A stretch of DNA of 64,000 nt from a virus: positions 1 to 64,000 of the IMG/VR virus record IMGVR_UViG_3300022751_000018; one strand, written 5' to 3'. Positions 10,560-47,353 of this stretch are shown here, one piece after another (the stretch's first letter is position 1; the number at the start of each line of letters is the position of its first letter). The notes under the pieces were generated by a model. That model did no database searches. It had not been told where the DNA came from and saw nothing but the letters and a program-made list of their open reading frames with translations. The position numbers and the translations under genes were made by a program.

Positions 10560-10916
10560 ATGAACTTAGAATTAAATGAAGAAGAGTTTGATGCTTTATT
10601 GAATATGTGCATCATGGCACTAACAGTAGTGCAGCATAATGGCAATGTAACTCAGGATGAGATTCACATGAATGCGTTGTTTAACAAGATTGTTGCTTTA
10701 AAACCGAATCGAGATGAGTTTATTACAAATGAAAGATTTAATAGGCTTCATTATACTTTTTTTCATCCTTACCTTGATCATTTTAAAAACTTGCTTGATG
10801 AAGATGCAGAGCAGGCATTAGAAGTTAATGAAGTGGTTGATGCAGAGAATGTACAAGAGTTAGAGGAGCCGGTTGAGGCTGAGGTTATTAGAAATAATTT
10901 TTGGGGTAGATTATGA
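10560..10916 (+). CDS. hypothetical acidic protein
   Basis: 118-aa ORF, first gene after the tRNA cluster. Confidence 0.4.
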   Translation: MNLELNEEEFDALLNMCIMALTVVQHNGNVTQDEIHMNALFNKIVALKPNRDEFITNERFNRLHYTFFHPYLDHFKNLLDEDAEQALEVNEVVDAENVQELEEPVEAEVIRNNFWGRL

Positions 10917-11269
10917 AATTTTTAGAAGCGGCGAATAAGTTTAAAAAGATAAGGATGCCTAGCTGGTCAACTATATCTTTTGTAGAAAATGTTAATGGGT
11001 CATTAAAAATTAATTGCATGCTAACAACATCAGACCTTTCATCTGACGACTGGGAAGAATACAAAGAGCCACGCAAGTATCTTGAAAACAACAAGGAAGC
11101 TATGCAGGCTTTGATAGATGGCAAGAAGATTTCTAAAGACGCTTGGGGTGATGGTCGTTTTTTTACTCTTGATAAAGATGGATTTATAGTTGATAAGGAC
11201 GGTGATTATATTGATCCAACATGGCCCACCCCAAATTATCATGGCAAGTTTTATGTTGTTGAGGATTGA
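10913..11269 (+). CDS. DUF2829 (Tad2-like) family small protein
   Basis: N-terminus MKFLEAANKFKKIRMPSW fits the M.F.EAL..LK.GKK.RR..W pattern. DDWEEYKEPRKYL...AMQALIDGKK segment is shared with ORF 27913. Confidence 0.35.
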   Translation: MKFLEAANKFKKIRMPSWSTISFVENVNGSLKINCMLTTSDLSSDDWEEYKEPRKYLENNKEAMQALIDGKKISKDAWGDGRFFTLDKDGFIVDKDGDYIDPTWPTPNYHGKFYVVED

Positions 11270-16225: not shown

Positions 16226-16673
16226 AGTTAAATTCTTGAGTCTTCCAGAGGATTTCAAGGATGGCATAAAGTTTGCTCAATATAATTTTTCTACTTTTAG
16301 GGCTCTAAATAGTATGCAGCTAGTCCAAGTTTCTGGAACTACAGACCTATTTATAGCTCAATTTTGCAATAGTGGCGGATTTATGTTTCTTCTTGAGGAA
16401 TGTGAAGCGTCATTTCAGCAAAGCGGATTTCCTTTTGAGGTTTTGTGGAGCGCTGATCTTCCTGATTACATTTATCAGTCTATTGTTGAATGTGAAAAAA
16501 TAAAAGATTTTAGAATTTTTAAAACATTATGCGAGCTTGCCAGGCAAAGAAAAAAGAATGCAGGAGTTTCTATTCAACTGTCATTTAAAGAGCTTGGCCA
16601 GATAACAAGCAATAATATTTCAAAGGAGCTTAGATCTAAGCTTAATCAATATGCTGATAAGGAGTATGAATAA
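16215..16673 (+). CDS. hypothetical protein immediately upstream of rtcB
   Basis: 152-aa ORF whose stop/start junction with RtcB overlaps (..KEYE* / MNHKV). Confidence 0.4.
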   Translation: MNHKVKFLSLPEDFKDGIKFAQYNFSTFRALNSMQLVQVSGTTDLFIAQFCNSGGFMFLLEECEASFQQSGFPFEVLWSADLPDYIYQSIVECEKIKDFRIFKTLCELARQRKKNAGVSIQLSFKELGQITSNNISKELRSKLNQYADKEYE

Positions 16674-27912: not shown

Positions 27913-28284
27913 ATGAACATATATGAAGCAAGTATAAATTTCGAAAAAATAAGAAGAAAGGGATGGCCTACGAAAAATTATCTTATATTAGGATTTAATA
28001 CGAAGATGTTTGAATCAAATTCTATAGATAATGATCAGTATTCTTTATCTTGGGATCAATTACGAGCCAATGACTGGGAAGAGTACAAAGAGCCTAAAAA
28101 GTATTTGACGACTAAAGAGGCTATGCAAGCATTGATTGACGGGAATAAGTTGCAAGCAGATAACTATGATGAAGATATCTTTATTTATCTTTGCGATCAA
28201 GGTCATATTTTGTTTAATCATGGGGCCGAGGCTTTTCCATGTTTCAGCAAAGATAGACAGTTTTACATATACGAGGGTGAATAA
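27913..28284 (+). CDS. DUF2829 (Tad2-like) family small protein, paralog of 10913
   Basis: MNIYEASINFEKIRRKGW. NDWEEYKEPKKYL..KEAMQALIDGNK. Confidence 0.35.
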   Translation: MNIYEASINFEKIRRKGWPTKNYLILGFNTKMFESNSIDNDQYSLSWDQLRANDWEEYKEPKKYLTTKEAMQALIDGNKLQADNYDEDIFIYLCDQGHILFNHGAEAFPCFSKDRQFYIYEGE

Positions 28285-29441: not shown

Positions 29442-29846
29442 TATCTTAAGTGAGACGATATTAACAAAGGAGATGAAAATGATTGATAGAATAAAGAGTA
29501 TAAATGATGAGCTAAAGAACTTTTTAAGCATGGAGGCCGACCTAGTCGCTTATAGAACTATTTTAAGCTGCATGGACTCACTAGAAACCTACAAAATCAT
29601 ATTAGAAAAACGTGAATCAATAAAAGGTAAATAGCATGTCAATTAAAAAGTATACCTCTGTCAGGCTAGACAATGAATTTAACAGCACCATGTTTACAAC
29701 TTGCTGCGGTTTAGCTGTATGTGATGATCAATCATGCTGCCCTGGCTGCGATTTAGAAGTGTATGAAGAAACACGCGAGCAAAGATGGAATAAAGCGTAC
29801 GGATATCGAGAAGTAATTTACAGAAACAATGAATAAATAAAAGGAG

Positions 29847-29942
29847 ATGATGATGACTTATCTAAAAGAACTACTACTTGACGCCGCCGTTATGTTCGTA
29901 TTTGTCGGCGTATGGACTGCGATTTTTATGGTGGCTTTGTAA
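29847..29942 (+). CDS. 31-aa hydrophobic peptide (MMMTYLKELLLDAAVMFVFVGVWTAIFMVAL)
   Basis: RBS AAAAGGAGATG. Single predicted transmembrane segment. Confidence 0.25.
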   Translation: MMMTYLKELLLDAAVMFVFVGVWTAIFMVAL

Positions 29943-31216
29943 TGATTTATTTAAAAAAACAAAAGCCAAACTACATGCAATGGGTTTTGATAAAAACATT
30001 AAATCCTATTGATGGAGATCCTTTTTTCGTTGCACGCCTAATGAGAGATGGATACGAATACTTTGAATGCAAAGCAGGAAATGGTTGTAGGCCAATAGAA
30101 TTTTACGCTGAATTTGTTACGCACTGGCAAGAGCTTCCAAAGGACAATGAAAAATGAAAGTAAAAGAACTGATAGAAATATTGAAAAGCGTTAATCCTGA
30201 GCTTGACGTGGTCATGTCGAAAGATGCGGAAGGCAATAGCTATTCTCCGCTTTCAGATTTTAGTTTTGGAGTATATGAGCCAGAAAGCACGTGGTCGGGT
30301 GACTTTGATATATACATTGATGAAGACGGCACAGCATGTTACACAGAAGAAGAAAGCAATGCAATTTGCCTCTGGCCGGTGAATTAGTATGATTCAAAAT
30401 TACTGGATACTCGGAATCTCACTATTTTTTTCTTTTTATAATATTAACAAGATAAATAAGGGCGATGATGACCGAACTTTAATGATTAATGCACTAGTAT
30501 TTGTTGCGATACACTTTTTGTCACTTTCTGTGATTATATCATGCGATTAAATTACGACGAAGCAGAGGGAAAAGACAAAACGTTTATATTTTTCAGGGAT
30601 CAATTAACAGAGCGCAATATAGCGATGGCTGAGATATTGAATAGTGAAATCAAGAACGACGACGAGTCAAAGCTAAAACTGCTAAACGCTTTTAATTACA
30701 GATTAGAATCATATCAAAGAGACGCGCTAATAGCAGCCGCAAAAAAATTTATAGGTAACAAATGAACTTTTCAGACTTAACAGTATTCGAAGAAACGAAA
30801 AAAACTGATGATTCAATCATTTCTATTACTTCTGAAAACAAAATTATTTTGCGACAAGGATTTATTAGAAATGCACGATGCGATCTTGAGAATATGACTC
30901 ACGTTATATTGAGCTATTCGCAATCTAATAGAGTGATCGTTTTTAACTTTACTGATAATAAGAACGCAAAAGGATCATTTACGCTCAGTAAAGCGACTAA
31001 CACAGAAAACTTTATCATATGCTCAACGCAATTCTTTTCTTTTTTTGAGATAAAAGAGCGCGTATTTGGCAAGTATTTTGCAGAATTGAATAAAATAGGT
31101 GAGAAAGGATATTTCTGGACTATAAACTTGAATAATAAAATAAGATAAGATAATTATTTGGCGAATGCGCGGGGGATTACACCCACCCTTTTAATTAAAA
31201 TATATCAAAATATCTA

Positions 31217-31244
31217 TTGCAATAAATATCCTGTGTGATATTAT
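31217..31244 (+). promoter_or_regulatory. promoter: TTGCAA, 16-nt spacer, TATTAT
   Basis: Same family; upstream ATATCAAAATATCTA. Confidence 0.35.
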
Positions 31245-31478
31245 CTCATTATAACAAGAGCGCAACGAGCGAACGACTTAAAACACAAAGGATATGATTA
31301 TGAACTACACATCAATGTACACCGGAAACACTCTTACTGCCCTTGACCACGAGGGATATTGCAAGCATATGATTGACAGAGAAAACGGAGTAAAAATGGC
31401 TAATGGAAAATTTCCCTCTTGCGCTGAAATAATCAAAGATAACGAAAACGGTCAAATAACGTACTGGGTTGATTTAGA

Positions 31479-31910
31479 TTAAACCTTCCCATTCATAACG
31501 TCTTTGTACATGCTCTCGGCTTCTTCATCGGTGATAGTCGAGACATCCACCTCTTTCGGCTCTTGAGCATCGGGATTGTCCATGAGCATATCTTGAACTA
31601 TTTTAGCATCGGCAGCACCCATCTTTCCGTCTAAAACTGCCTGAGCAAGTTTAAGTTTAATTTCTTCCATATTTTCAGATTTGATTTTTTTAGGCAGGTC
31701 TATGTCTACGCTAGTGTATTTTATTTTTGCAACTAAACTTTCATAGCAAAGTCGCATAGCGATAGGTTGGCCCATTTTAGCTTGCTCAATAACCGCTGAT
31801 ATTATTTCCTCACCCTGGTCCTTCACCATGTTGTAAAATCGCGTGCGCTCGCTTACAGCGCCCTTTGTTCGCCCTTTAGCATTACCGCTCTGTCCTTTTT
31901 TAAATGCCAC
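31479..31910 (-). CDS. hypothetical DNA-binding-like protein (N-terminal KKGQSGNAKGRTKG motif)
   Basis: A lone minus-strand gene inside the plus-strand block. Gly/Lys-rich N-terminus similar to motifs in small terminase-like or DNA-binding phage proteins. Confidence 0.3.
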   Translation of the reverse strand: MAFKKGQSGNAKGRTKGAVSERTRFYNMVKDQGEEIISAVIEQAKMGQPIAMRLCYESLVAKIKYTSVDIDLPKKIKSENMEEIKLKLAQAVLDGKMGAADAKIVQDMLMDNPDAQEPKEVDVSTITDEEAESMYKDVMNGKV

Positions 31911-32218
31911 TGTAAAAACCTTGCATAGTGCAACAATAATTGATCAAATTTTATCCTTACCAGTGAAAATAATCAAGCATCATTAAAAAAATCACTTTTT
32001 ATCGAATTTATGTATATTAAATGATATACAAATTTCGTCCTGCAGGTGATTTTCAATAACAAAACCTAAATAAATTACTGCTATAACAGTAAAAATCGTT
32101 TATTTTCTGATTAAATGACTCAAAAATAAACAAAAATGACCAAAAATACCGCTATAGCAGTAAAAAACAGGGATTTAAGAATCATTTCAATTTATTTCAA
32201 TATTTATCGCATTATCTA

Positions 32219-32246
32219 TTGTATTATATCTCGCTTATGATATTAT
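32219..32246 (+). promoter_or_regulatory. promoter: TTGTAT, 16-nt spacer, TATTAT, with upstream ATCGCATTATCTA
   Basis: Same family. Confidence 0.35.
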
Positions 32247-33506
32247 TATCACATGTAGCCGAGACATGAAACTTAACGAAAAGGAAATTAAAATGATCAG
32301 ATTACAACAACAGTATATTACGGATGGCGAGAATCAGGCGGTTGTATCTTACACATATCATGAGCATTTCGCTGGCAGAAAAGCAGTTATCATGTCGGCC
32401 AAAGCAGAATCAGACTCATTCTACAAAGTAGCCAGAAAAATTATAGGAACTGACGAAAAAGGCGATTACAACTCTTTTCTATGTTATCGCGCAATAATTA
32501 TTTATGAAAACAACCCACTGTATACGCGTGCGGTAGAAATGGCATCAAAATAAGGATTTTAAAATGAGCACAATAAATAAATTGAATGAATTTTTAGCTA
32601 CAAGTGTCGCCGCAATGGATGATGTAACTTTAAGGGCATGGAATGTATTAAGTGATTTTGAAAAGCAATTTATTGCGGCTGGAAGCTTCTATTTCAAAGA
32701 AAACATAAACTCTTTAAAAAGAAAAGATGAGATATTGAAACTTAAATTTAAAAATGTGCCGTTTATTTAATCAAGGAAATCAACATGTATTTTATAGAAA
32801 AAGTAGACATAGAAGCATTAGACGACTACCCGATTTTTGAATCAGAGTATTTAAGCGCAGCGATTGATCAGTGTCGCATTAACTGCGAGAGCTACACATT
32901 CAAAGATCATGAAGCAAGCGTAGCATTTGAAGTGTACAACGATAGATTTGACAAGTTTTTTGAGTTTAAGAAATTTAATATTGAACCGACAATAAGAATT
33001 TCTGATTATGTGACAATAAAAACTCATATTGTTGAGCGAATTGTAGCCAATGCCTCGGGGCAGGCATAGCCCCACTTATTAATAAAGGAGATGAAAATGA
33101 GCGTACTTGATTGTTTAGAAATTAGACTTCCCGCGCATGTGTGCGAAGCGATTAATCGATTGAATGAAATTGAATCTGACGACTACTTAGAGCTAGACGA
33201 GGAGTATTAAAAATGCAAAAAATAAATCTTAACTATGCGAGTGATTATGATTCAATTTTATACAGGTATCTTCGAAGATATAAAACAGCATTGAAAAAAC
33301 TAGGAAAAGATCATGCGGTGATCAATAGAGCCCCGCTTGAAGACGCAATCTTTGGAAGGCCTCTAGACTGGTCGATGAAGAAAGCAGCTCATGAATGGCT
33401 TAAATCGTTCTTAGCGAATGAATTGCTTGAAGATGAGAAAGGCGTTGCTAAATTTATTAGAAATCATCTTTCGCATTAAATATATTGAAATATATCATAA
33501 TATCTA

Positions 33507-33534
33507 TTGTATAATATAATTAGTATGCTATACT
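33507..33534 (+). promoter_or_regulatory. promoter: TTGTAT, 16-nt spacer, TATACT
   Basis: Same family. Confidence 0.35.
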
Positions 33535-34779
33535 TATCCTATGTCAGCGAGACATAGAGCAAACAAAGGAGATGGCAATGGAAAACGTAAGAGTATTTAT
33601 TCAAGTAGGTAATGATAAACAAGACCAACTTTTTCAATTTGAAACAAGATTAGGCTACGTAAGATTTCTAAATTACTTAGAAACAAGAGTGGGTGCGGGC
33701 AAGCATGTAGTAAAAATAATAAGCCCAGAAAGCGAAGAGATGTTTTTTTATGATGAGCTTAAAATGTTTTGCACAAGAGATGAGTATATAAATCTTAGAA
33801 ATGAAATGTATATTGAACAGAGAAATGCGCATGGTTACTACATGAGAACACGATAAAAGGAGATGACAATGTACACAGCAATTTTAAACGTAGGCTATGA
33901 AGAACCGATACAGTCTTTCATAAATAAAGACGATGCTATCAGTAGATCTCGCTTAGTTCTTGAGGGCTACGAATTCGATGAATACGAAAGTTCCGTTAAA
34001 GTTGAAGTTAGAGACGAAAAAGGCATAAAAGTTTGGGAAGATTACAAAGAAAATTTAGACTATTAAAATTTATTAAATAAGGAAATATTAAAATGAACGA
34101 AAATGAATCACTTTATTCTGGCGCGATGTTAGATCAATTTTTTGGAAAAACTGTTCAGCGTAATTTGTGGCCAATTCAGTCTGAAGAAGAAGCCGACGAG
34201 CACTGGGAAGATTTCAAAGAATCAAGAAAACCTATCGAGAATAAAAAATGAAAAATAAATATAGAAAACAAATGGCCGAGGAATACTCAAAAGAGGCTGC
34301 TTACGATGCTACGTACGATGTCATGAAAGCATTTGAATCAATAAAAAAAGAAAGCGGATTAAATAGATCGGCGCATCTTAGAGCAAGAAATTGCGCATAT
34401 TCTGTTGCTTACGACTCTGCTTTTGAGGCTTATTGTAAATCATTAAAAAAAGATGGGCTATTATGAACAAAGAAACTGAATCAAAAATGCTACATGAAAG
34501 AGAGCTTGAGCTTTCATCGAATCTTGAGACTTTGCTTTATGGTCACTTAATAGATGTTAAAGACTCATTGTCTGAGTCATTCGAAACTCTTATGAAATTG
34601 GGCCAAGATAAAACTTTTGGACTTAATTCTGGAACGTGTTTTGAGTCTTATATGCACAATGTTATTGATGTTCTTTTTGACCTTGCATCGATAAGGTCTG
34701 ATTTAGACGATGATAAAAAGATTTATCGCTATTTATTGTCTGCAATTACAAAAGCTAAATACAGACGAGCTTAGATAAA

Positions 34780-35100
34780 ATAATAGTCATTATTTACACA
34801 AAAACCTTTCAAATTATATAATCTTTTATTGATTAATTTTAAATCATTATGAGATTATTTATGTCTATAATTCAATTCTAAAAAAAATTTAAGCAGTAAA
34901 ATTAATTATTTTTAATAAAAGCAAAATTTCAAGTGGGACGTTTACAGGATAAAAAGGGACGTTTACAGGATAGAGTTTTTTCAATTTAAAAAAATCTGTG
35001 GATAAGTGCCACTTTTTCTGTGCATAAGGTTGTGGATAACTTTATTGCCCTGTGGATAAGTCTTTAAATAAAAGACGGATTATTACTCGGTGCTTGATTG
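34780..35100. other. putative origin of replication: AT-rich region, two 17-bp iterons and three perfect DnaA boxes
   Basis: TGTGGATAA at 34997-35005, 35031-35039 and 35051-35059, plus TGTGCATAA at 35019-35027. Iterons GGGACGTTTACAGGATA at 34935-34951 and 34956-34972. AT-rich tract 34800-34930. The region has no credible ORF. Confidence 0.6.
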
Positions 35101-36676
35101 TCATCTCATAAATGCTTGCTTGCTTGCCTTTTTGGAAGCGGCGGCGCTACGCATTTTATTTCGGTTTACGTTGAAAGAATATCTTACTAGAGTACTAGTG
35201 AAGATATTAAGAATAGTATTTTGTTTTTTAAACCTTGTCAATAGGGCAATAGAAAATATATTTTATTTGCGTTGTTTAACTTGATATTTGTTATATATTG
35301 AACTATAATTATCTAGTCATAAGATGATTAATGGGAGTATTTAATATGCAAACTGAGTCTTACACTTTACTAGATAAGGTCAATCAAGCTCGAGAACACC
35401 AAAAAGATTGGCTTGTTAGATGCAAAGAGAAAGGCATTGATATGTCATGGAAAGCGCATGTGGTTAAGAAAAAACCCATTAGTTTCGTTCCTATGAGTAG
35501 CCATAGAACCACCAATTTAGATTGGTAGCAGGAGATTAATTAATGAACACAAACATTTATCAAGTAAATGCGGGCCTTAGAGCTTGCAATCATTTTTCAG
35601 AATCTTACCCAGAAGAATTTACGCCTGAACTTTACGAATTTATTCTATTTTTAGAAGAGCTTAAAAAAGACTTGGAGGATTAATAATGGGATTTAACAAA
35701 AATACTATTTTAAAAAGTATAGAAGATTGTTTTAATAACATAAGCGAATCTGCGATTTGCTTGAATGATGGAAAAAATACAGATAAATGTAGAGAAGACA
35801 TTATTCTAAATGTAATGAATGGTATTCATGAACTTAGATCGCTTGAAAGTGAATTGCATGAAATTAAAGAGTCTATTTTACAATTAATGTATTGAGGTTA
35901 AATTATGAACTTACCTGAAATAATGAAAAGTGGTGATTATAAAAACGAAAGTTATGAATATTTTCTAACAAATAAGTCAGGGCATGAAGAAGATTTTGTT
36001 TTCTATTCAAGTAGCCTTCTATCTAAATGGGGATTTAATGACGGCGATACTTGGAGTGAAGAAAGCCTAGAAACTATTATTAATCAGTTTATTTTGCCTA
36101 ATTTAGATCAAAAAGTTGAAATATGTCACATATCGACTTCACACAATCCTTGGCGGGCAGAATCCATTGATGGCGTTGAAGTGCATCAATATTGGAGTGA
36201 TTACGAAAAATGCCCCGTAAAGATTACCCCGGAATTTTTATTTTTTAAACAAAAAGACATTTGGAAAGCATTAATTGAAAAAAGAGATAAAATATGAGCT
36301 TATTCGATAAAATTGATATTACAGATCGAGGCATTGATCAGATTGACAATATAAGGCATATTTTTAAGAAAATGGACGCTTATATTGACAGAATTATGCT
36401 AAAAGATATCGAAGGCACAAGCTCACGTTATAAAAGAGAGTTTGATATATGCAAGCAAAAACTTGAAGAAGCATGCTTTTATGCGATTAAATCTTGTTGC
36501 ATTAAAAATAGAAAATAATATATAATGCGCTTGAGTCTATAGCTTAATTTTAAAGCACCGTTTTTATAAGGGTGATCCTAAGGGTGAACAGTTTAGGTGG
36601 GCTCACAATCTGATCTACATTTAGTGTAGAAACAGTACCTGAGATCGTTATGCGATCACTGCTTTTAAATATTAAA

Positions 36677-36686
36677 AAGCATGCTT
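36677..36686. repeat. AAGCATGCTT palindrome copy 1
   Basis: AAAAAGCATGCTTATTA. Confidence 0.5.
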
Positions 36687-36923
36687 ATTAATAACATTGA
36701 TTTTTTTGAATTATGGCATTGGGGTTTAGCGTCTAGAAGCCATGACCCCTAAGCCACCAAATTATTGAATTATGGGAGTGAAGTTTGAATACTTGTTTGA
36801 TCGACAAGAACTATAAAACCTGCTGAGGTGCACCCTTGTAGCCTCCCACTTTTTTACCCGATTAGCGCCAGGCCACTACGGCCACGGCTCCACCGTAAAT
36901 ATGGGGATATCGGACCAATTTAT

Positions 36924-37000
36924 GATCTTGTTCGTCTAGCCCAAGACGCTGCGCATCTCGTATGAGACGCGGTACGTGGATTAAAGAAGCCACACAAGGT
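36924..37000 (+). ncRNA. degenerate tRNA-like element: acceptor stem and Glu/Asp-like D arm, with the anticodon arm replaced by a long hairpin
   Basis: Acceptor ATCTTGT/ACAAGGT. TCGTCTAG D-arm signature. Hairpin GCGCATCTC-GTAT-GAGACGCG. Confidence 0.3.
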
Positions 37001-37012
37001 CAACTTTTTTAT

Positions 37013-37085
37013 GATTTTGTTCGTCTAGTAGACTAGGACACCACTGGGTCACGGTGGAAACGTCGGAGCACATCCGGCACAAGAT
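37013..37085 (+). ncRNA. degenerate Glu/Asp-like tRNA (pseudo-tRNA). Anticodon loop GGGTCAC, T loop AGCACAT.
   Basis: Acceptor ATTTTGT/ACAAGAT. D arm GTCT..GGAC identical to the tRNA-Glu pattern. Non-canonical residues 32/33 and non-canonical T loop. Confidence 0.3.
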
Positions 37086-37097
37086 CAACCTTTTTAT

Positions 37098-37170
37098 GCG
37101 ATAGTAGCTCAATTGGCAGAGCGCCTGGTTTCCACCTAGGAGGTTGCACGTTCAACTCGTGTCTGTCGCT
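37098..37170 (+). tRNA. tRNA-Gly (anticodon TCC)
   Basis: Acceptor GCGATAG/CTGTCGC. D arm GCTCAATTGGCAGAGC. Anticodon arm CCTGG-TTTCCAC-CTAGG. T arm GCACGTTCAACTCGTGT. Confidence 0.7.
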
Positions 37171-37177
37171 AATCTTT

Positions 37178-37251
37178 CCGTCAATCGTATAATGGCATTA
37201 CCTTGGCCTCCAAAGCCAAAGATTTGAGTTCGATTCTTAATTGACGGGCCA
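37178..37251 (+). tRNA. tRNA-Trp (anticodon CCA), CCA encoded
   Basis: Acceptor CCGTCAA/TTGACGG. Anticodon arm TTGGC-CTCCAAA-GCCAA. T arm TTGAGTTCGATTCTTAA. Ends GCCA. Confidence 0.7.
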
Positions 37252-37265
37252 TATTCAATACAAAA

Positions 37266-37275
37266 AAGCATGCTT
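37266..37275. repeat. AAGCATGCTT palindrome copy 2
   Basis: AAAAGCATGCTTATAT. Confidence 0.5.
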
Positions 37276-37344
37276 ATATTTTTGTTAGCAAATGTAATTA
37301 CAAAAAACCATAGTTGCATTTAAGGCTCTAAATGTAATTATAAA

Positions 37345-37354
37345 AAGCATGCTT
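37345..37354. repeat. AAGCATGCTT palindrome copy 3
   Basis: AAAAGCATGCTTTAAA. Confidence 0.5.
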
Positions 37355-37675
37355 TAAATTAAGCAGGTAATAAAAAACGATTTTACCTACTTAACACGAT
37401 TTTACCTACTTCTTTACCTTAATATTAGTGCAAACATATAATTATCGCTAAATTAATCATAATAACCATTGCTTTTGCATTAATATAAGGATATAGTTTA
37501 ATTATAAAAAGGAGGGTTAAAAATGACCTTACAAGAAATACACGACGAGTTAATTGACTTAAGAAAGAAAGAGTCAGAAGTTTTTGATGATAGAGGATTA
37601 TATTTTGCTATAAGCGCTTGCGCAGATTCTTTTTCTTGCTATAGAACTATTTTAAACGAAAAAGGAGAATGATAA

Positions 37676-38011
37676 ATGTTTGTATATTTCGATGACTTTA
37701 ATTGCAGTGATATGATTGTAAATAAAACAGAAAAGCAGTCTTTTGGAAGGTTGTCAAAAAAATTCTTGGTTAAGAATGATATAGATTTAAAAAATAATTT
37801 AAAGGTAAAATTTTTAATAAACAGTGAAAATATTAATGAAATTGGAATCTGTTTTTTAAAAAATCAAGGGGGCTTAAATCCACAAAATAATCAATTTTTT
37901 ATTAGCAAAAAGTTAAACATAGAAAAAGGGCATTACAGATTGGTAAAAAATACTTCTGATTCAATAGGTGTTTTTTTTGTTATTGAAAAAATAAAGGAGA
38001 ATGAGAAATGA
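37676..38011 (+). CDS. hypothetical protein
   Basis: 111-aa ORF with the conserved AAGGAGAATGATAAATG start context. Confidence 0.35.
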   Translation: MFVYFDDFNCSDMIVNKTEKQSFGRLSKKFLVKNDIDLKNNLKVKFLINSENINEIGICFLKNQGGLNPQNNQFFISKKLNIEKGHYRLVKNTSDSIGVFFVIEKIKENEK

Positions 38012-38172
38012 AAAATATTGAATGGTTGACTGTTATATTTTTTCTTGGCATGGAGTTTTTTGCTTTTTCTATATTAGTATTTTTTGCAATATCATTCCCA
38101 CTGTCTTTATTTGCCAGCATACCATTTTTTATTGCGTGGACAGCTTGGGGCATTCAGATTACCTTTTACTTA
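38008..38172 (+). CDS. small hydrophobic membrane protein (54 aa, two transmembrane segments)
   Basis: Same conserved start context AAGGAGAATGAGAAATG. Confidence 0.3.
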
Positions 38173-38207
38173 TAAATAAAAATAGTATTCACTAAGGATA
38201 ATGAGAA

Positions 38208-38378
38208 ATGAAAAAAATAGAAATACATTTGGTAGACGTTATTTTTAACTACGAATATCAAGAAGATTTTGACGAAGATGATGCAAGCAAAAGTGCTGAA
38301 ATTCTTTTAAAGAATCATCTTGATAAATTAAAAGGTATATCATACGAAATTGACTGTACTTATTTTTGTAACGAATAG
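38208..38378 (+). CDS. small acidic hypothetical protein (56 aa)
   Basis: Same conserved start context AAGGATAATGAGAAATG. Confidence 0.3.
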   Translation: MKKIEIHLVDVIFNYEYQEDFDEDDASKSAEILLKNHLDKLKGISYEIDCTYFCNE

Positions 38379-38750
38379 TAGCCACTATATAACACAAGAC
38401 GTATTCAATACGCTGGCCCGAGGCTGCCTTAGCCTAAAATTTTAAAATTGGAGTTATTATGCACACATTAACACCTGAAGCTTATGCTAATATTCAATTG
38501 TTTCAGAGGATAGCTGAGAAAAAGCGACGTCAAGAAATTAAAAAAGCTAATCATGAATACAAAATGCAATTTTTCAAAAAAGGTATTGACTGCATTGAGA
38601 TGAAAGACATGTCAAAAAATAAACAATTATTAAGCGAAGAATCAAATAAAAATATTTCCACTTTGCTTAATAAAGAGAAGACAGAAGACAACTGGAGTAT
38701 ATTTGTGCATAAAGTACCCAAATAATGGACATAGACAAATATTTTATAAT

Positions 38751-38760
38751 AAGCATGCTT
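38751..38760. repeat. AAGCATGCTT palindrome copy 4 (18-bp palindrome TAATAAGCATGCTTATTA)
   Basis: Lies downstream of the stop of 38459..38725. Confidence 0.5.
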
Positions 38761-39043
38761 ATTATCGGGCCATCAATAATTTTAATCGCAATTTTTTTAA
38801 TGTAAGGAAAGTAAATGAAAAACAAGACACTTTGTATTTGTATTGCATCAATTGTAATTTCCGCATCAATTTCTTATGTTTTATACTCAAAACATAGGGT
38901 AACTCAGCAATGTGAGCGAGCTTATGATAACTATATAGACTATATGAAAGACATAAATAAGATAGCTATTGACAATGGGTTTGGCGAGCAGTCCGTAGTT
39001 TCTCTTTATCAATTTTGTAAAAATTAAAATAATAAGCATGCTT

Positions 39044-39053
39044 ATTTAAGGGG
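39044..39053. repeat. AAGCATGCTT palindrome copy 5
   Basis: Downstream of the stop of 38815..39027. Confidence 0.5.
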
Positions 39054-39371
39054 CCGACATGTGCAGAAGCGATGATCCTAGTTTCTACGATCCAGACTGG
39101 GAATCAATTGAAAGAGAGAAAATAGTGCTTAGGCGTGATTTAGAAGAAGACTATGCGGACAATATTAACGATGAGGAGTGGCTTAAAAATGAAAGAAATT
39201 AAAAAACGATGCAAAGATTATGTAAAAAAAAGATACACATTTGGATGCACGGTTTCGATGACCTCAAGGGTAGGTGAAGTAGAAGTTACTTTAACAGCTA
39301 GAAGCATTGAAGACCTTCTAAGGCTTAATGATGAGCTGACAAAAAGAGCTGCAAATAATAAAGAGCATTAA

Positions 39372-39381
39372 AAGCATGCTT
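39372..39381. repeat. AAGCATGCTT palindrome copy 6
   Basis: Directly follows the stop of 39153..39371. Confidence 0.5.
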
Positions 39382-39753
39382 ATTTATTAGTGATTAAAGC
39401 TTACTGATGAGTTAATATTTAAAACTTAATAACCAGGAGAAATTCAATGTCAGAAAATTTAAAAATTAATCCAATTCAAGAATCTTTCAAGATTCAAGAG
39501 CTTATAAATGAGAATGCTAGATTGAATGGAGAGCTTAGCTTGACAATGTCAAAGCTTAACCAATCAAAGGGCATGACTCAGAATTTAATTATTCAGCTTA
39601 CTGATCTTCATGGAGAGCTAGAGGTTCTACGTGAAATTAATAATTTTGCAAAAAATATGAATGAAAATAAGGAAAACATAACCCCAGATTCCAATGAAGA
39701 AATTAATGAACCTATTTCCCCTCAGGATATTAAAGAAACAACTGCTGAATAAT

Positions 39754-39763
39754 AAGCATGCTT
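39754..39763. repeat. AAGCATGCTT palindrome copy 7
   Basis: Directly follows the stop of 39447..39752. Confidence 0.5.
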
Positions 39764-39774
39764 ATTTTTATTCT

Positions 39775-39800
39775 AGGGCGTAAATTTAAATACGCCCTGA
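39775..39800. terminator. bidirectional hairpin AGGGCGTAAATTTAAATACGCCCT between convergent genes
   Basis: 8-bp GC-containing stem between the plus-strand gene ending at 39752 and the minus-strand gene ending at 39806. Flanked by T and A tracts. Confidence 0.45.
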
Positions 39801-39805
39801 ATTAA

Positions 39806-40000
39806 TTAAGGATCAAGGCCAAGCTCGGCGCATCTCTGTGCGTACAATTCATAATCTGTAAATGTTTCCATTTCCTCAAGACCCGTAGTCATACACTGGT
39901 CCGGGTCTACTTTTCCATTAGCGTAAATAGTTTCGTTTTCATTGACCACCGTGTACGCAATAAAATACGTAGTTACAAGTGGATAGTTGATTTCGTGCAT
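39806..40000 (-). CDS. hypothetical small protein downstream of the fibre genes (possible fibre assembly factor)
   Basis: 64-aa ORF whose start overlaps the upstream stop. Confidence 0.3.
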   Translation of the reverse strand: MHEINYPLVTTYFIAYTVVNENETIYANGKVDPDQCMTTGLEEMETFTDYELYAQRCAELGLDP

Positions 40001-41049
40001 TATGGCGTCCCCGCGTCAGTAATAAACCAGAATTTTTGAATTAAAGCGTCTCGGCCTGCGATAGCATTAGCCCCTGAATAATGGGCGCTGCCTGCGCTAA
40101 ACGTAACGCCGTTTTGCACTGTTGCCTGCGAAGGCCAGCCGGTTGTTATGTCTAAAAGTTTGTTATAATTTGTAATTGAAAACGCGGAGCCTGTCATCAT
40201 GTTTGCCGCATTAACTAATGCTGAAATACTTAAAAAGCTAACATCTTGATCAAAAGACGCGGCGCCTGAAAACATTAAATCAAAACGCGTGCATAATGTC
40301 GTTGTTCCAAAATTTGTTAGTGGCTGATTAAACGGAGTGTTTTGAAACATGCCGTCACATCTAAGCATTACTGTTGAGTTTAAATTTATCGCGCTATTCA
40401 TGGCAGTGTTTCTAAACATACTGGCATACGAGTTACTTAGCGGAGCGTTGATAGTAACCGGAGAGTTAAAGCTTGTAGCTCCATCTAAAAATGATCCTAT
40501 GGAAGTTGCAAGTGGAGCTTGAATGTTGATCGGCATATTAAATAATACGCAGCTACCGCCTAAAAAGTTTCCAATACTCGTAACGTTACGAAAATTCCAC
40601 TGATTTAAGCTGGGGATTGTTGTGAGCGATGCGCAGCCGAAAAAAAACTGGGTCATGCTCGTAGTTAAACTTAAATCTAAAATATCCGTAGCCGTTATTT
40701 CTAGGTTTGAGCATCCTCGGAATACTCCTGTGCCAGTGACCGGCTTAAAACTTCCCCATCGAGAAATTTCTATAATTTTCAAAAAATTACCCGTGGCGTT
40801 AAATAAAAGTCCGTTAACTTTTCCTGAAATTACTATCGTATAGACGCCTGGCTCTGGGTATATGTGCTCCCATTGCGGATCATTATACGTAGTGATAGTT
40901 GATGACGTACCATCTCCCCAAGCAACAATGCAGTTGTACGATCCAGTGCTTATTGCCGGGAAGATGAACAAATCGTTATCTTCAATGCCAGCGCCAAGGC
41001 TCGTGTCTACTGTAAACGTAAAATTTGAAATTATTCCTCCTGACATCAT
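40000..41049 (-). CDS. tail fibre / receptor-binding-like protein with DUF285 (BspA-type) repeats, paralog A
   Basis: Repeats of the form F.GCSNL...T......MF.GC.SL..IP.LN.WN. Conserved N-terminal block (NC.VAWGDGTSSTITTYND..W.H.YP.PGVYT) and C-terminal block (MMTGSAFSITNYNKLLD.TTGWPSQA) shared with 41049..42449. Confidence 0.5.
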   Translation of the reverse strand: MMSGGIISNFTFTVDTSLGAGIEDNDLFIFPAISTGSYNCIVAWGDGTSSTITTYNDPQWEHIYPEPGVYTIVISGKVNGLLFNATGNFLKIIEISRWGSFKPVTGTGVFRGCSNLEITATDILDLSLTTSMTQFFFGCASLTTIPSLNQWNFRNVTSIGNFLGGSCVLFNMPINIQAPLATSIGSFLDGATSFNSPVTINAPLSNSYASMFRNTAMNSAINLNSTVMLRCDGMFQNTPFNQPLTNFGTTTLCTRFDLMFSGAASFDQDVSFLSISALVNAANMMTGSAFSITNYNKLLDITTGWPSQATVQNGVTFSAGSAHYSGANAIAGRDALIQKFWFITDAGTP

Positions 41050-42449
41050 TAGGGGCTACCTCCGTCCGTAATTGTCCATAAATTAACCGATGTGAGAATA
41101 TTTCTTCCAGTTGTTGGGTTCCCCACGCTGTAATGAGCAGTTCCAGCGCTAAACACAACGTTATTTTTTCTAACCGCTTGAGATGGCCAGCCCGTCACAG
41201 AATCAAGCAATTTATTGTAATTCGTAATATTAAACGCGGATCCTGTAAACATAGTCGCAGCTGATGTTAAATTTGCAATTATCCATAAACTTACATCGGG
41301 ATTTGCCAATGTCGCACCGTTGAACATACTAGTAAACGTTGTCGCAGCATTGGTTAAAAGAGAAATTGTATTGTTAAACGCAACTGCTCCTTGCAAGAAA
41401 GAAAGAAAAGTCGTGCAAAGTGGCGTATTAAAACTAATCGGTTGGTTGAATGAAACACAGTTAAAGAAAAATGAGTTCATCAATGTCACTGCCGCCAACG
41501 TCAATGTTATAGAGCTATTAAATGCAGTAGCGCCATTTAAAAAGCTATTCATCGCCGTGCAATTAGGAAGATTGAAGTTGATCGGTTGATTAAACGAAAT
41601 AGCATTAAAAAACATAACGCTTGCATTCGTAACATTCGTAAAAGTGCCAAGATTAGCGACCGACTGATTAAATGCAGGACAATTTTGAAACATAGCTGAT
41701 ATTGAATTAACAGTAGTTGAATTTAATACGACAGCACTATTAAAAATAGTGCATCCCAATAAAAAAGACGCATAAGACGAGCACGAAGTGGCATCAATAG
41801 TAATCGGTGAATTGAGCTTAATACAATCTCGAAACATTAAATCAATAGTTGTGTTTACTGTAACCCTGATATTTATAGTCATGTTAAGATTTGAGCATCC
41901 TAAAAAACATGAACCGAATGAAATAATATTTAAAAAATTCCATCGGTTAAAGTTGGGTATAGAAACAAGTGATGCGCATCCTGAAAAATATAAATCCATT
42001 CTGTTAGCGCCGGTCATATCAACAATATCTTGCGCAGATATTACTAAGTTAGCGCATCCAGCGAATGCACTGGATTGTTGATTGAATCTAAATGCGCCCC
42101 ATCTCAATATATTTAATAACTTTAATCTATCAGAGTTTGCCGAGCCAAATTGAATGCCATAGAAAATACCAGAAATAACAACTGTATAAACACCTGGCGA
42201 TGGATAGGTGTGAGTCCACGCCGCATCATTAAAAGTGGTAATAGTAGATGTAGTGCCGTCGCCCCATGAAACGACGCAATTGTAAGAACTTCCAGCGCCG
42301 CCGACTGTTGGAAACTTTATTTGATTGCTAGCCGAAGACCCGGTGCTAGTTTTCGTAGTGTCCCATACGGTCGTAAAATTTCTGTTAACGCATCCTGATA
42401 TAATACTCATGAAATTCTCGTCATTTTTATTGAGCCAAAGCCAACGCAT
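41049..42449 (-). CDS. tail fibre / receptor-binding-like protein with DUF285 repeats, paralog B (longer repeat array)
   Basis: Multiple (A/S)FNQ(P/S)I and MF..C..L repeats. Termini homologous to paralog A. Confidence 0.5.
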   Translation of the reverse strand: MRWLWLNKNDENFMSIISGCVNRNFTTVWDTTKTSTGSSASNQIKFPTVGGAGSSYNCVVSWGDGTTSTITTFNDAAWTHTYPSPGVYTVVISGIFYGIQFGSANSDRLKLLNILRWGAFRFNQQSSAFAGCANLVISAQDIVDMTGANRMDLYFSGCASLVSIPNFNRWNFLNIISFGSCFLGCSNLNMTINIRVTVNTTIDLMFRDCIKLNSPITIDATSCSSYASFLLGCTIFNSAVVLNSTTVNSISAMFQNCPAFNQSVANLGTFTNVTNASVMFFNAISFNQPINFNLPNCTAMNSFLNGATAFNSSITLTLAAVTLMNSFFFNCVSFNQPISFNTPLCTTFLSFLQGAVAFNNTISLLTNAATTFTSMFNGATLANPDVSLWIIANLTSAATMFTGSAFNITNYNKLLDSVTGWPSQAVRKNNVVFSAGTAHYSVGNPTTGRNILTSVNLWTITDGGSP

Positions 42450-44606: not shown

Positions 44607-44762
44607 TTAGCTAAGATTTTCGCTCAGTTTTTTTGAAACTTCTCTGAGATTAGAGATCTTAGCTCGAAAGTGAAAAGGTATTTGTGTTAAATGATTTATC
44701 TCTTGCTCAATTAGATCAATTATAATCTTTAGCTGATAGTCGGTAAATTCTATTTTTTTCAT
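44607..44762 (-). pseudogene. downstream frame of the split TetR-like gene (MKKIEFTDYQLKIIIDLIEQ...), start overlapping the upstream stop (ATGA)
   Basis: 51-aa ORF in another frame beginning within the A7 homopolymer. It may be a genuine frameshifted C-terminal domain, a pseudogene or a coupled small ORF. Confidence 0.25.
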
Positions 44763-45058
44763 ACAAACAAAATTTCTTTAAGCTTTTCTTGGATTTCCGG
44801 TGATAATCCAGAGAAAACAAGTGTTCTATCAAGAATTCCTTCTATGATAATGGAATATTCTAAATCTTCGACTGCCTTCTTAAAAATCAGATCTTTTAAA
44901 GTATCAACTGAGTAAAATACTCCGTAAAATTGCGCATTGCAAATTCCTAACTTACGCCCAATTTTGTAAGTTGTAGTTTTTTTAACTCCTATTTCTTTTG
45001 CCATTTCATAAGCGGCATCAAAAATTGGTTTTTCCCATTTTTTGGTCTTTACAATCAT
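44759..45058 (-). CDS. TetR-family regulator, N-terminal HTH part (gene split at an A7 run)
   Basis: IGVKKTTTYKIGRKLGICNAQFYGVFYSVDTLKDL fits the TetR HTH signature. The ORF ends at TGA inside GTATGAAAAAAATAG, where a second frame starts. Confidence 0.45.
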   Translation of the reverse strand: MIVKTKKWEKPIFDAAYEMAKEIGVKKTTTYKIGRKLGICNAQFYGVFYSVDTLKDLIFKKAVEDLEYSIIIEGILDRTLVFSGLSPEIQEKLKEILFV

Positions 45059-45131: not shown

Positions 45132-45869
45132 ATGTTCTACGTGGAGCATTTAAGGAAGAGAGTGAGCGAAGATATTTTAGTTAGGCCTTCTGGCCTTGAT
45201 AGACTAGTTAATTGCCCAGGATCATGGGCTTTAGAAAAGCCTATCCCTAACAAAGACAGTCCTTATGCCATAGAAGGAACAAATGCCCATGTTCATGCGG
45301 CTAAGATATTGAGCCTAGATTTTTTTGATGCTGATTTATTTAACGATGAAAAACAGCTTGAAGGATGGTCTGGATTAATGACCTACTATAATCATGTTCA
45401 TGATTCTCTTGGCAATAAAAAGTCTTTGCTAAAAATTGAGAAAAAAATAAGCCTTACCAACTTACACTCTAAATGTGCTGGAACGCCGGATGCTTTATTT
45501 TATGATGCAGAAAGAGAATATGTTCATATTTTTGACTTTAAGTATGGTTATAATGTGGTTCATGCTGAAAAAAACTGGCAACTTCTTGGATATGCAAGTA
45601 AATTTATCGATGTGGTTCCAAGCACCACGATCTTTAAGCTAAGCATAGTTCAACCCAGAGCTTTAACAAAAGATCCGATACGAGTTAGCGAAGTAAGCTT
45701 TGATGGTATTCTTAATGCTAAAAGAACTATTAGATCAAAGATTGATGAGGCAATGTCGGATAATCCTAGGTTTAAAGTAGGAGAGCACTGCAAGTATTGT
45801 AAGGCTAGGTCTATTTGTGAAGAGTTTAAAAAAAAATCTAATGCAATTATTAACGAACTAAGGAAGTAA
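45132..45869 (+). CDS. PD-(D/E)XK exonuclease, Cas4/RecB-like, with a 4-Cys cluster
   Basis: GTPDALFYD ... VHIFDFKYG (D..D/ExK). Cys at LVNCPGSW plus C-terminal CKYCKARSIC. Sits upstream of recT. Confidence 0.5.
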   Translation: MFYVEHLRKRVSEDILVRPSGLDRLVNCPGSWALEKPIPNKDSPYAIEGTNAHVHAAKILSLDFFDADLFNDEKQLEGWSGLMTYYNHVHDSLGNKKSLLKIEKKISLTNLHSKCAGTPDALFYDAEREYVHIFDFKYGYNVVHAEKNWQLLGYASKFIDVVPSTTIFKLSIVQPRALTKDPIRVSEVSFDGILNAKRTIRSKIDEAMSDNPRFKVGEHCKYCKARSICEEFKKKSNAIINELRK

Positions 45870-45870
45870 A

Positions 45871-46296
45871 ATGACAAAAATTATTGAACTTAAAATGTCG
45901 ATAACAGAAGAGAATCTAAAAATTATTCGTGATGCACTTTGTATGTCATTGCATATTTTATATACTCCACAGCATTTGGAGGGTAAAATATCTGAAGAAT
46001 TTATCCAACTAAGAGATAAATACTACTCAGCCATTGTTAGCGAGGTTAAGGATATTAACTCAGTCCTTAACTATGGAGATAGCGAAACACTGCTTTCCGT
46101 TGAAGATAATAAGCTTTTAAATTCCAAATTTTTTGGGCCTTATATAAAGCAAGTTTCCTCTAATGTCTGCTTACATGCTTTTAGCACTGCATTTAGCGAT
46201 AAACTTATTAATGACTCAGTGACAACACTTTTACAAATTCCAGAATCAGAATGGAACCCAGCAATAACAACACAGGAACAAAAAGAAAATGACTAA
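45871..46296 (+). CDS. hypothetical protein
   Basis: 141-aa ORF. Confidence 0.35.
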   Translation: MTKIIELKMSITEENLKIIRDALCMSLHILYTPQHLEGKISEEFIQLRDKYYSAIVSEVKDINSVLNYGDSETLLSVEDNKLLNSKFFGPYIKQVSSNVCLHAFSTAFSDKLINDSVTTLLQIPESEWNPAITTQEQKEND

Positions 46297-46564
46297 ATTA
46301 TTTGATATTGAAGATACTAGTGATTTAACAGAAGGATGTAAAATACATCTAAAACTAGATAACCTACGTCCAGACACAAAAAAATTGTTGGATTTATTCT
46401 TGAAAAAACAAAAACTTTCTATTGATCAGATCCTAGTTGGACTTAATAGAGAGCATAAAATGGAAAAGAAAAGAAACTGGGTTACGGCAACTTTATATAA
46501 CTTATCTCAAAAAAATAAAGTAAGGAAGGTTGTTGGAGAACAGGGTGTTTATGAAAAAGTATAA
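46289..46564 (+). CDS. hypothetical protein
   Basis: 91-aa ORF. Confidence 0.3.
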   Translation: MTKLFDIEDTSDLTEGCKIHLKLDNLRPDTKKLLDLFLKKQKLSIDQILVGLNREHKMEKKRNWVTATLYNLSQKNKVRKVVGEQGVYEKV

Positions 46565-46702
46565 AGTAACTACGTACGTTGAATGTCGTCACGATATGAT
46601 CGTAGATGCTGATACTGCTCATAAAGCTATGAGAAAATGCAAAGATATTCTAAAAGAAGAATATAAAGATAAAAATCATAGCGAGATGGATATATCAAGC
46701 CA

Positions 46703-47353
46703 GTGGGCAGAAGGTGTTTAATAAAGATGTTAACAACGCCCTTGAATGAAAAATCCAAGTTTTTTAAAGTTAAATTAAAGCCATTAGATGCTGATTTGTC
46801 TAATTGCTATATGATACAAGGCCATGACAATTCGATTAAATATGATACTGAGCAACATTCGATTAATACTAATTACGCATTTATTGACAATAAAGGAGAT
46901 ATAAAAATGGTAACATCAAATTCAGCAGTAGAGCTATCTACTATTCCTCAAGAAGAAAAAATTCACCATTTGCGTGAAAAAAGTATTTCTGAAGAAATAT
47001 TAGAAACCAAAGAGGCCATAAGCACGCTTAAAATGCGCTTAGAAGATCTTGAAAATAAAGCTATAGAATCTATTCGGGAAGGAAAAGAAGTTTCGGGGTT
47101 TAAAGTTGTGCCTCAATTTAGTCGAGTTAAATGGACCCTTAAAGATAATGACGTTATTAAGCTTGCGAGTGCTTATAATGTTATTGTTGCAAAACCTGCG
47201 AAGCTTGAATTGATTACTCCTCTTCAGGCAATTAAAGCAGGGATTCCTAAAGAGATTGTTAAGCAATATTCAAATTCAGAATTTAAAAGCTACAAGCTTG
47301 CCAATGAAGGTGACAAACCTGGCGTTGATGAATTTGATTTTGATTCACTATAA
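46703..47353 (+). CDS. hypothetical protein (coiled-coil middle region). Alternative start at 46727.
   Basis: 216-aa ORF in the recombination module. Confidence 0.35.
   Translation: MGRRCLIKMLTTPLNEKSKFFKVKLKPLDADLSNCYMIQGHDNSIKYDTEQHSINTNYAFIDNKGDIKMVTSNSAVELSTIPQEEKIHHLREKSISEEILETKEAISTLKMRLEDLENKAIESIREGKEVSGFKVVPQFSRVKWTLKDNDVIKLASAYNVIVAKPAKLELITPLQAIKAGIPKEIVKQYSNSEFKSYKLANEGDKPGVDEFDFDSL

Follow-up and report, generated by a model that had tools for sequence, protein, structure and literature searches.

Eight copies of a perfect palindrome at gene junctions and around the tRNA genes of an uncultivated AT-rich phage: candidate operator or roadblock sites of a dimeric DNA-binding protein

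Introduction

Short sites that are repeated between the genes of phage operons have been described in several systems. In cluster A mycobacteriophages, stoperators, the sites of L5 gp71-type repressors, occur in many copies in the short intergenic spaces of operons, where their proposed effect is to stop RNA polymerase during elongation and not at initiation (PMC9283540). In T4-type phages, the so-called PeSL cassettes are repeated short intergenic elements that lie between small variable open reading frames (ORFs) and form the borders of shuffled genes (PMC4122927; PMC2839356). Here, we analyze a 64,000-nucleotide stretch of viral DNA (positions 1 to 64,000 of IMG/VR record IMGVR_UViG_3300022751_000018; hereafter, the window), in which the 10-bp palindrome AAGCATGCTT is repeated at the end of a long block of small genes and around two tRNA genes, and we propose that the copies may be operator or roadblock sites.

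The locus resembles the stoperator system in that many copies of one site occupy operon junctions: seven of the eight copies are non-coding, and four lie between cistrons. Stoperators, in contrast, are asymmetric 13-mers that are bound by a monomer in an orientation-dependent manner, are distributed genome-wide in temperate phages, and have a known repressor, whereas the window site is a perfect palindrome of 10–20 bp, is confined to 3.3 kb, and has a candidate binder only, with no evidence of a lysogeny module. The PeSL elements are likewise short, repeated, and located amid small ORFs; however, each PeSL joins a stable, terminator-like stem-loop to a sigma-70 early promoter, and the window sites have neither. 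Clustered operator-like palindromes are thus an already known kind of feature in phages. The present arrangement nevertheless differs from the described operators, stoperators, and PeSLs: eight perfect copies are placed next to stop codons and about a tRNA cluster, none is found in the related contig L176, and the core is common to many unrelated phages.

Results

An exact search located eight copies of AAGCATGCTT in the window, all inside positions 36469–39763 (Table 1), with none in the remainder of the 64 kb. Dinucleotide-preserving shuffles averaged 0.21 copies and never exceeded two, and AAGCATGCTT was the top over-represented word among the 9–12-mers of the window. When one mismatch was allowed, four further scattered sites appeared, which is the chance level. 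The shuffles, the one-mismatch count, and the k-mer ranking together rule out a chance origin of the cluster. The preliminary description of this locus had reported seven copies restricted to a 3-kb segment and had named beforehand a chance-level frequency as the result that would speak against the element; eight copies were observed in the window against 0.21 expected. The cluster and its confinement hold within this window, but the count was one short, since the copy at 36469, inside ORF 36294–36518, had been overlooked, and the copy placed at 39044 starts at 39034.

Approximately 95 small rightward ORFs span 9.9–39.8 kb, and the cluster forms the final 3.3 kb of this block; leftward DUF285/BspA-like genes converge on its end. 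The placement of seven of the eight copies in non-coding sequence has a probability of P = 0.007 given the local non-coding fraction of 39%, and of P = 1.6e-5 given the fraction of 16% in the whole rightward block. As described previously, four copies follow the stop codons of consecutive small genes, although the distances are 0, 1, 6, and 25 nt rather than 1–25 nt. The next start codon is 15–65 nt away, and no rightward gene follows the last copy. The other copies had all been assigned to the tRNA locus; three do lie in its 1-kb non-coding region, one ahead of tRNA-like elements and two at 15 and 94 nt past tRNA-Trp, whereas the eighth lies in coding sequence.

Table 1. Positions of the palindrome copies and of associated features in the window
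Feature	Position	Core start	Strand	Remarks
Candidate replication origin	34775..35089			AT-rich 315-bp gap, 1.4 kb upstream of copy 1
Copy 1	36469..36478	36469		Sole coding copy, at 3' end of ORF 36294–36518 (reads EEACFY)
Copy 2	36677..36686	36677		Non-coding tRNA region, just past degenerate tRNA-like element 36533–36605
tRNA-Gly(UCC) and tRNA-Trp(CCA)	37098..37251		+	Copy 2 upstream, copies 3 and 4 downstream
Copy 3	37266..37275	37266		15 nt past 3' end of tRNA-Trp
Copy 4	37344..37355	37345		12-bp palindrome, 79 bp past copy 3, upstream of two direct repeats and of promoter-like 37413–37442
Copy 5	38746..38765	38751		20-bp perfect palindrome ATAATAAGCATGCTTATTAT; core begins 25 nt past stop of gene 38459–38725 and ends 54 nt ahead of start of gene 38815
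Copy 6	39031..39046	39034		16-bp palindrome; core begins 6 nt past stop of gene 38815–39027 and ends 15 nt ahead of ATG 39059
Copy 7	39372..39381	39372		Touches TAA stop of gene 39189–39371; 65 nt ahead of ATG 39447
Copy 8	39751..39766	39754		16-bp palindrome; core 1 nt past stop of final rightward gene 39447–39752
GC-rich hairpin AGGGCGTA-N8-TACGCCCT	39775..39798			Convergent gene boundary, 12 nt past copy 8; read from sequence
99-aa protein with TetR-type N-terminal helix-turn-helix (HTH)	44759..45058		-	Weak binder candidate

The core is invariant in all eight copies, while the A-rich 5' and T-rich 3' flanks differ in how far the symmetry extends. The perfect dyad covers 20 bp in copy 5, 16 bp in copies 6 and 8, and 12 bp in copy 4, and is the 10-bp core alone in the remaining four copies, of which copy 2 reaches 36671–36692 if one mismatched pair is tolerated. 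The 14–18 bp of symmetry given in the preliminary description is consequently apt for three copies and too long for the others. Half-sites by themselves were not enriched in the window. An invariant core with variable flanks suggests recognition of duplex DNA by a dimer rather than RNA pairing.

When all explanations that involve a bound protein are taken together, we consider it likely that the copies are protein-binding sites. The single explanation that we favor, although we hold it at slightly less than even confidence, is that they are operator or roadblock sites of a dimeric DNA-binding protein, which would attenuate read-through or occlude short-leader starts. A sequence-specific, two-fold symmetric protein, most likely encoded by the phage, would bind the eight copies on double-stranded DNA. 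The sites would lie inside one long rightward transcription unit, at cistron junctions, to either side of the tRNA cluster, and at the terminus of the unit, and the bound protein would most likely block or attenuate RNA polymerase reading through the junctions. Copy 6 may be an exception, with the protein covering a short-leader promoter there. The outcome would be that the module of tRNA and small genes is switched off or partitioned at some stage of infection. The protein binding, the nature of the binder, and the effect on transcription are inferences.

The core contains GCATGC, the SphI site, and eight of the nine GCATGC hexamers in the window lie in the cluster. The only other one is at 11016; approximately six would be expected outside the cluster as estimated from base composition, possibly a mild avoidance. 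This distribution, and the HNH and intein elements carried by the phage, could be taken to indicate that the sites are cut by a nuclease or homing enzyme or recognized in restriction-modification; a nuclease or recombinase site was among the roles first proposed. Homing sites, however, are long, asymmetric, and usually single, a cleavable cluster in the phage's own genome would be counter-productive, and no nuclease gene is adjacent. We consider such a target highly improbable, and nothing else turned up in support of a nuclease or a recombinase.

A homologue of ORF 37676–38011 with 50% identity led to L176, a 44-kb Logan contig that has ~25 genes in common with the window at 30–90% protein identity. 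L176 contains no copy of AAGCATGCTT. It has a palindrome of its own, ATTAGGGT(TT/AA)ACCCTAAT, in three copies (7931, 8184, and 9479), with the center flipped in one. One copy lies ~55 nt past tRNA-Trp, which is the position of copy 3 in the window, and two flank an element of GGGACGTTTACAGGAT and a DnaA box. The position after the tRNA cluster is conserved between the two sequences. The absence of AAGCATGCTT and the presence of a different palindrome at the matching site indicate that the element is lineage-specific and replaceable, and the difference at the post-tRNA-Trp position would represent the kind of site turnover that a change in regulator and operator specificity yields. The rightward operon of L176 ends in a canonical GGCC hairpin with a T-run, for which the window has copy 8 and the GC-rich hairpin; the latter was not called in our terminator scan. 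Protein-seeded searches of IMG/VR gave only relatives at 29–34% identity, and a scan of JGI metagenomes seeded with a conserved 49-aa protein gave no matches.

The comparison with L176 also bears on the possibility that the copies are recombination joints, which would border small gene cassettes and promote a PeSL-like shuffling of accessory genes. The window genes 38815 and 39059 are adjacent with copy 6 between them, whereas their L176 homologues are ~1.2 kb apart with four genes intervening, so that the gene order is broken at a copy, albeit against a relative at 30–90% protein identity. Single small genes have copies at their borders, the region is rich in ORFans, and the phage encodes RecT and a PD-(D/E)XK exonuclease. 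Against this, identity over 10–20 bp is a very short substrate for homologous exchange, the early promoter and stable stem-loop of PeSLs are both missing at the sites, and in the one distant relative available we saw no clean indel bounded by copies. Recombination would also leave the perfect palindrome unexplained. The probability of this explanation is, in our judgment, low.

The core recurs in other phages. IMG/VR was scanned with a 16-mer and then with two-copy patterns at fixed spacings, and three palindromes served as controls in four scans. Two copies at N265–295 spacing were found in 13 contigs, whereas the control palindromes AACCATGGTT and AAGGATCCTT gave one contig each, i.e., AAGCATGCTT is ~13 times commoner than the controls at gene-scale spacing. 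In an unrelated contig of 34% GC (L001), six copies fall within 2.6 kb where a small-gene block ends beside a convergent boundary. Tandem pairs at 10–40-nt spacing were present in more than 120 contigs among the matches listed; the corresponding control scans yielded 24 contigs and 9 loci, most of which were operator pairs of prophages or arrays resembling satellites.

At least 79 of the tandem loci (L022–L138, e.g., L096 9826–9858) come from a single family of Pseudomonas lambdoid prophages related to VW-6S, D14O, and YMC11/02/R656. In these, AAGCATGCTT-N13-AAGCATGCTT (23 bp apart) lies between a divergent cI (HTH and S24 peptidase) and cro, its copies overlap a TTGACA -35 ahead of a near-leaderless cI start, and a third copy is usually 1–3 kb off. 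CI and Cro of the family have the YEAVRQW helix in common. The 10-mer is evidently the immunity operator of this family, and the context implies dimeric HTH repressors. The identical core of the window differs in its surroundings: the prophage operators are a 23-bp pair with G/C flanks that overlaps a -35, whereas the window has eight dispersed copies with A/T flanks, no such pair, and no divergent genes at any copy. An operator for a dimeric regulator, one of the roles first proposed, is the best-fitting one, as judged from the invariant palindromic core, the variable flanks, and the cI/cro context of the same 10-mer.

The other 52 loci represent at least 36 nucleotide-distinct lineages of 30–66% GC, 12 of which have at least four copies in a locus of no more than 15 kb. 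The tandem scan contributed 39 of these loci, and in them the flanks are A-rich on the 5' side and T-rich on the 3' side (57% and 53%, against 33/30% and 10/17% for two control palindromes). The copies occur 15–25 nt upstream of starts, with the Shine-Dalgarno sequence between, directly past TAA stops, in tandem arrays with a period of 24–47 bp, some at convergent junctions, and immediately upstream of or inside primase-polymerase (prim-pol)-helicase genes of two different families. Prim-pol/AAA_25 helicase/winged HTH (wHTH) genes at L098 (1264–3449), L132, L069, and L013 contain up to seven intra-ORF copies, with arrays just upstream; the intra-ORF copies of the L098 type recall origins embedded in initiator genes. 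Within one prim-pol-helicase ORF, the copies use all three reading frames, and in L074 and L113, four copies are perfectly conserved in blocks that are only 73–79% identical. These two observations indicate that the constraint acts on the DNA sequence itself.

No binder common to these loci emerged. All-against-all comparison of the neighboring proteins (~10-kb flanks) by blastp and phmmer revealed no family whose distribution follows the motif. Of 122 neighboring ORFs scanned with Pfam, just two contained HTH_3, and hidden Markov models (HMMs) made from the linker and C-terminal wHTH of the prim-pol-helicase had no matches elsewhere. In Pantoea phage Kyle, a relative by its portal protein, the count of AGCATGCT in the first 50 kb was only at the chance level. 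The A/T-flanked tandem pair was found in 3 of 185,579 bacterial genomes, which is uninformative on the host; a metagenome scan for the motif pair returned only unrelated repeats, and literature string searches for the motif returned primers only. Repeated palindromes are common in phage genomes; AAGCATGCTT is unusually recurrent among them.

As RNA, single copies of 16–20 nt have folding energies of -0.7 to -3.8 kcal/mol, and folding of their 46-nt contexts gives no greater stability than that of shuffled sequences (z-scores of -1.65 to +1.5). The terminator scan made calls at none of the eight sites, and a hairpin or intrinsic terminator formed by a single copy is ruled out by the folding energy. 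The window sites resemble bidirectional intrinsic terminators and REP (repetitive extragenic palindromic)-type palindromes in lying past stops and at a convergent boundary and in combining an A-run, a palindrome, and a T-run. Unlike these, their stem has three core pairs plus A-U pairs, and their sequence is identical across copies rather than variable. As for a U-tract, the 3' flanks are T-rich with interruptions (ATTTTTAT, ATTTATTA, and ATTATCGG), and four copies lie 0–25 nt past stop codons. These results agree with the preliminary description, which had called the RNA stem weak and had preferred a role at the DNA level, and the latter is the better reading, the single-copy stem being negligible.

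Copies on one transcript can also pair with each other, which, like the eighth copy and the candidate origin treated below, had not been noted before. Partition-function folding pairs 37266 with 37345 (P = 0.96) and 38751 with 39754 (P = 0.999). Duplexes of 10–20 bp between copies, such as copies 3 and 4 past tRNA-Trp or copies 5 and 8 around the last genes, could act in RNase III-type processing, as stabilizers of 3' ends, or as weak terminators. The location of copies past stops and downstream of the tRNA cluster, and the A-rich 5' and T-rich 3' flanks reminiscent of bidirectional terminators, are in line with this explanation, as are the tandem copies in other phages, which would give long hairpins with U-runs, some at convergent junctions, and the L176 palindrome at the matching position, which folds at -7 to -10 kcal/mol. 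However, identical palindromes pair automatically in any energy model, so that the predicted pairing cannot be counted as functional evidence. One copy by itself makes an unstable stem, long-range stems over translated cistrons are unlikely in vivo, and some copies elsewhere lie inside ORFs in all three frames. Moreover, RNA can pair without keeping one particular sequence, but the same core is retained in at least 36 unrelated lineages. A classical RNase III site, which had also been proposed, does not fit: approximately two turns of local double-stranded RNA would be required, a single copy offers at most 6–8 weak pairs, and only pairing between copies attains 10–16 bp. Overall, an RNA-level role appears unlikely.

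A promoter function was rejected in two forms. For a sigma-70 promoter, there is no -35/-10 register shared across the copies, and only the copy at 39034 abuts a promoter-like site (TTATCA-16-AATAAT, 39006–39033). The MotA box of T4 middle promoters has the sequence (a/t)(a/t)(a/t)TGCTT(t/c)A, and the tRNA cluster of T4 is transcribed from a middle promoter. Each half of the window palindrome reads TGCTT(A/T) and is thus similar to this box. Unlike the MotA box, the window site is symmetric, and the best matches of the portal protein are not in T4-type phages; a -10 element (TAnnnT at ~12 bp spacing, read by eye) is missing at seven of the eight copies, and only 38751 fits, with TAATTT. The phage has a recurrent intergenic signature of another kind, ATCGCAAAATCTATTGCAT-N16/17-TAnnAT (ATCTATTGYAW), on the plus strand only, with five exact cores (9560, 29408, 31212, 32214, and 33502) and a variant near 25.3 kb. 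These are probably the early promoters of the phage, in which a conserved element precedes the -35. The signature was seen at 9.6–33.5 kb and is missing from the motif cluster; that of L176 differs (TTGACATNNATGTCA).

The gap at 34775–35089 contains three perfect DnaA boxes (34997, 35031, and 35051; minus strand), one box with a single mismatch (35019), and two copies of the direct repeat GGGACGTTTACAGGATA, and perfect DnaA boxes are found nowhere else in the window. It is a candidate DnaA-dependent origin of the phage. Its pair of GGGACGTTTACAGGAT and a DnaA box is kept in L176 at 7960–7991. The copies of AAGCATGCTT might accordingly serve replication or segregation, as sites beside the origin at which an initiator, a ParB/KorB-like protein, or some accessory protein would bind: the cluster begins 1.4 kb from the gap, prim-pol-helicase genes of two families in other phages have arrays of the core directly upstream or within them, and two L176 palindromes flank the GGGACGTTTACAGGAT and DnaA-box element. 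A ParB/parS-type centromere would combine a cluster of ~16-bp palindromes near an origin with a ParB-family protein. The window has a palindrome cluster near a DnaA-box region, and neither a ParB domain nor an initiator gene was found among the ~60 window proteins scanned. No copy lies within the origin-like gap, the sites are dispersed over 3.3 kb at gene junctions instead of forming a compact array, and the two initiator families have no detectable DNA-binding domain in common. We regard a role in replication or segregation as quite unlikely.

The dimeric protein required by the operator or roadblock reading has one candidate in the window. The 99-aa protein listed in Table 1 matches a TetR-type HTH in Pfam (E = 0.009), and a profile built from it and its L176 orthologue matches more than 50 solved TetR regulators (best E = 2.6e-5). 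Homologues of ~100 aa lie beside prim-pol genes at two motif-bearing loci of one lineage. This protein is a weak candidate, a lead and not a finding. A second guess, that the 111-aa ORF 37676–38011 encodes a B3/AbrB-like binder, was dropped, as its AlphaFold model (pLDDT 41) was unusable; one relative of this ORF is a 566-aa protein with nine repeats of its unit.

Discussion

Our analysis favors a site for a dimeric protein because of the invariant core and variable flanks, the non-coding placement, the lack of a hairpin and of promoter geometry, the cI/cro precedent, and the DNA-level constraint seen elsewhere. The location of copies at cistron junctions and at the end of a co-directional operon would point to attenuation of read-through or occlusion of starts as the mode of action.

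Several observations weigh against this interpretation. The contiguous invariant core of 10 bp is shorter than the typical operator of an HTH dimer, the perfect symmetry and the confinement to 3.3 kb differ from true stoperators, and the copies on one RNA pair mutually in the thermodynamic model. As for the binder, the ORFs adjoining the sites are ORFans with no DNA-binding domain, and three neighboring or candidate proteins had no homologues in 5.8 billion sequences. When the window, L122, L057, and L176 are compared, variation in the recognition helix of the TetR-like protein does not match which of them carry the motif, and the gene for this protein is 5 kb from the sites with no copy at its own promoter. 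The YEAVRQW helix family of Cro and CI was not found among the six-frame ORFs of the window by a Cro HMM and a regular-expression search.

Operators or roadblocks at these positions would mark out a regulon that comprises the tRNA cluster and early genes of the ORFan type. A candidate anti-defense gene, similar to Acb2/Tad1, lies at the edge of the motif cluster. In that case, the sites would offer an experimental handle on the timing of accessory genes in an uncultivated phage. Beyond this phage, the core is recurrent in many unrelated lineages, often beside replication genes, with no common protein family nearby, which suggests either an undescribed common recognition system or a convergent sequence preference. 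In the former case, AAGCATGCTT, usually within AAAAAGCATGCTTTTT, would be the cognate site of one widespread DNA-binding factor, either a mobile, fast-evolving small regulator or a conserved host protein, used by dozens of unrelated phages to control replication and accessory-gene modules, with the window phage as an AT-rich recent acquirer. We put this forward as a doubtful, speculative extension.

Other features of the window

The window phage is AT-rich (~34% GC), and no cultured phage gave a megablast match to the window. The best matches of its portal protein are in Pbunavirus- and Kylevirus-type myoviruses. The longest contig bearing its proteins is 68.4 kb, and the Logan contig L139 is identical to window positions 29447–42236.

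The tRNA region holds further elements. A degenerate tRNA-like sequence at 36533–36605 scores 24.7 bits against the Rfam tRNA model, below threshold. Two paralogous elements of ~85–90 nt (36922–37010 and 37011–37095) have 7-bp acceptor-like stems and T-runs and were not called by ARAGORN; a comparable element lies right ahead of tRNA-Trp in L176. Two copies of AAATGTAATTAYAAAAA are located near 37294 and 37333, and direct repeats of ACGATTTTACCTACTT (37377–37392 and 37396–37411) lie between copy 4 and the promoter-like TTTACC-18-TATAAT (37413–37442).

The 74-aa ORF that holds copy 1 matches the Acb2/Tad1 hairpin domain with 27.4 bits (Pfam cut-off, 27), and ORFs 10913–11269 and 27913–28284 have sub-threshold Tad2-like matches. 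These three ORFs of the early block are possible anti-CBASS or anti-Thoeris genes.

The RtcB RNA ligase gene (16673–18796) is interrupted by an intein with an HNH domain, and the Mu F-like head protein (4385–6265) has a sub-threshold intein match of 31 bits (Pfam cut-off, 35.8). The DUF2800/PD-(D/E)XK exonuclease gene at 45132–47353 consists of two ORFs (45132–45869 and 46703–47353) parted by ~830 bp with two small ORFs. The exonuclease gene of L176 is intact (463 aa), and the interruption in the window is probably an inserted mobile element.

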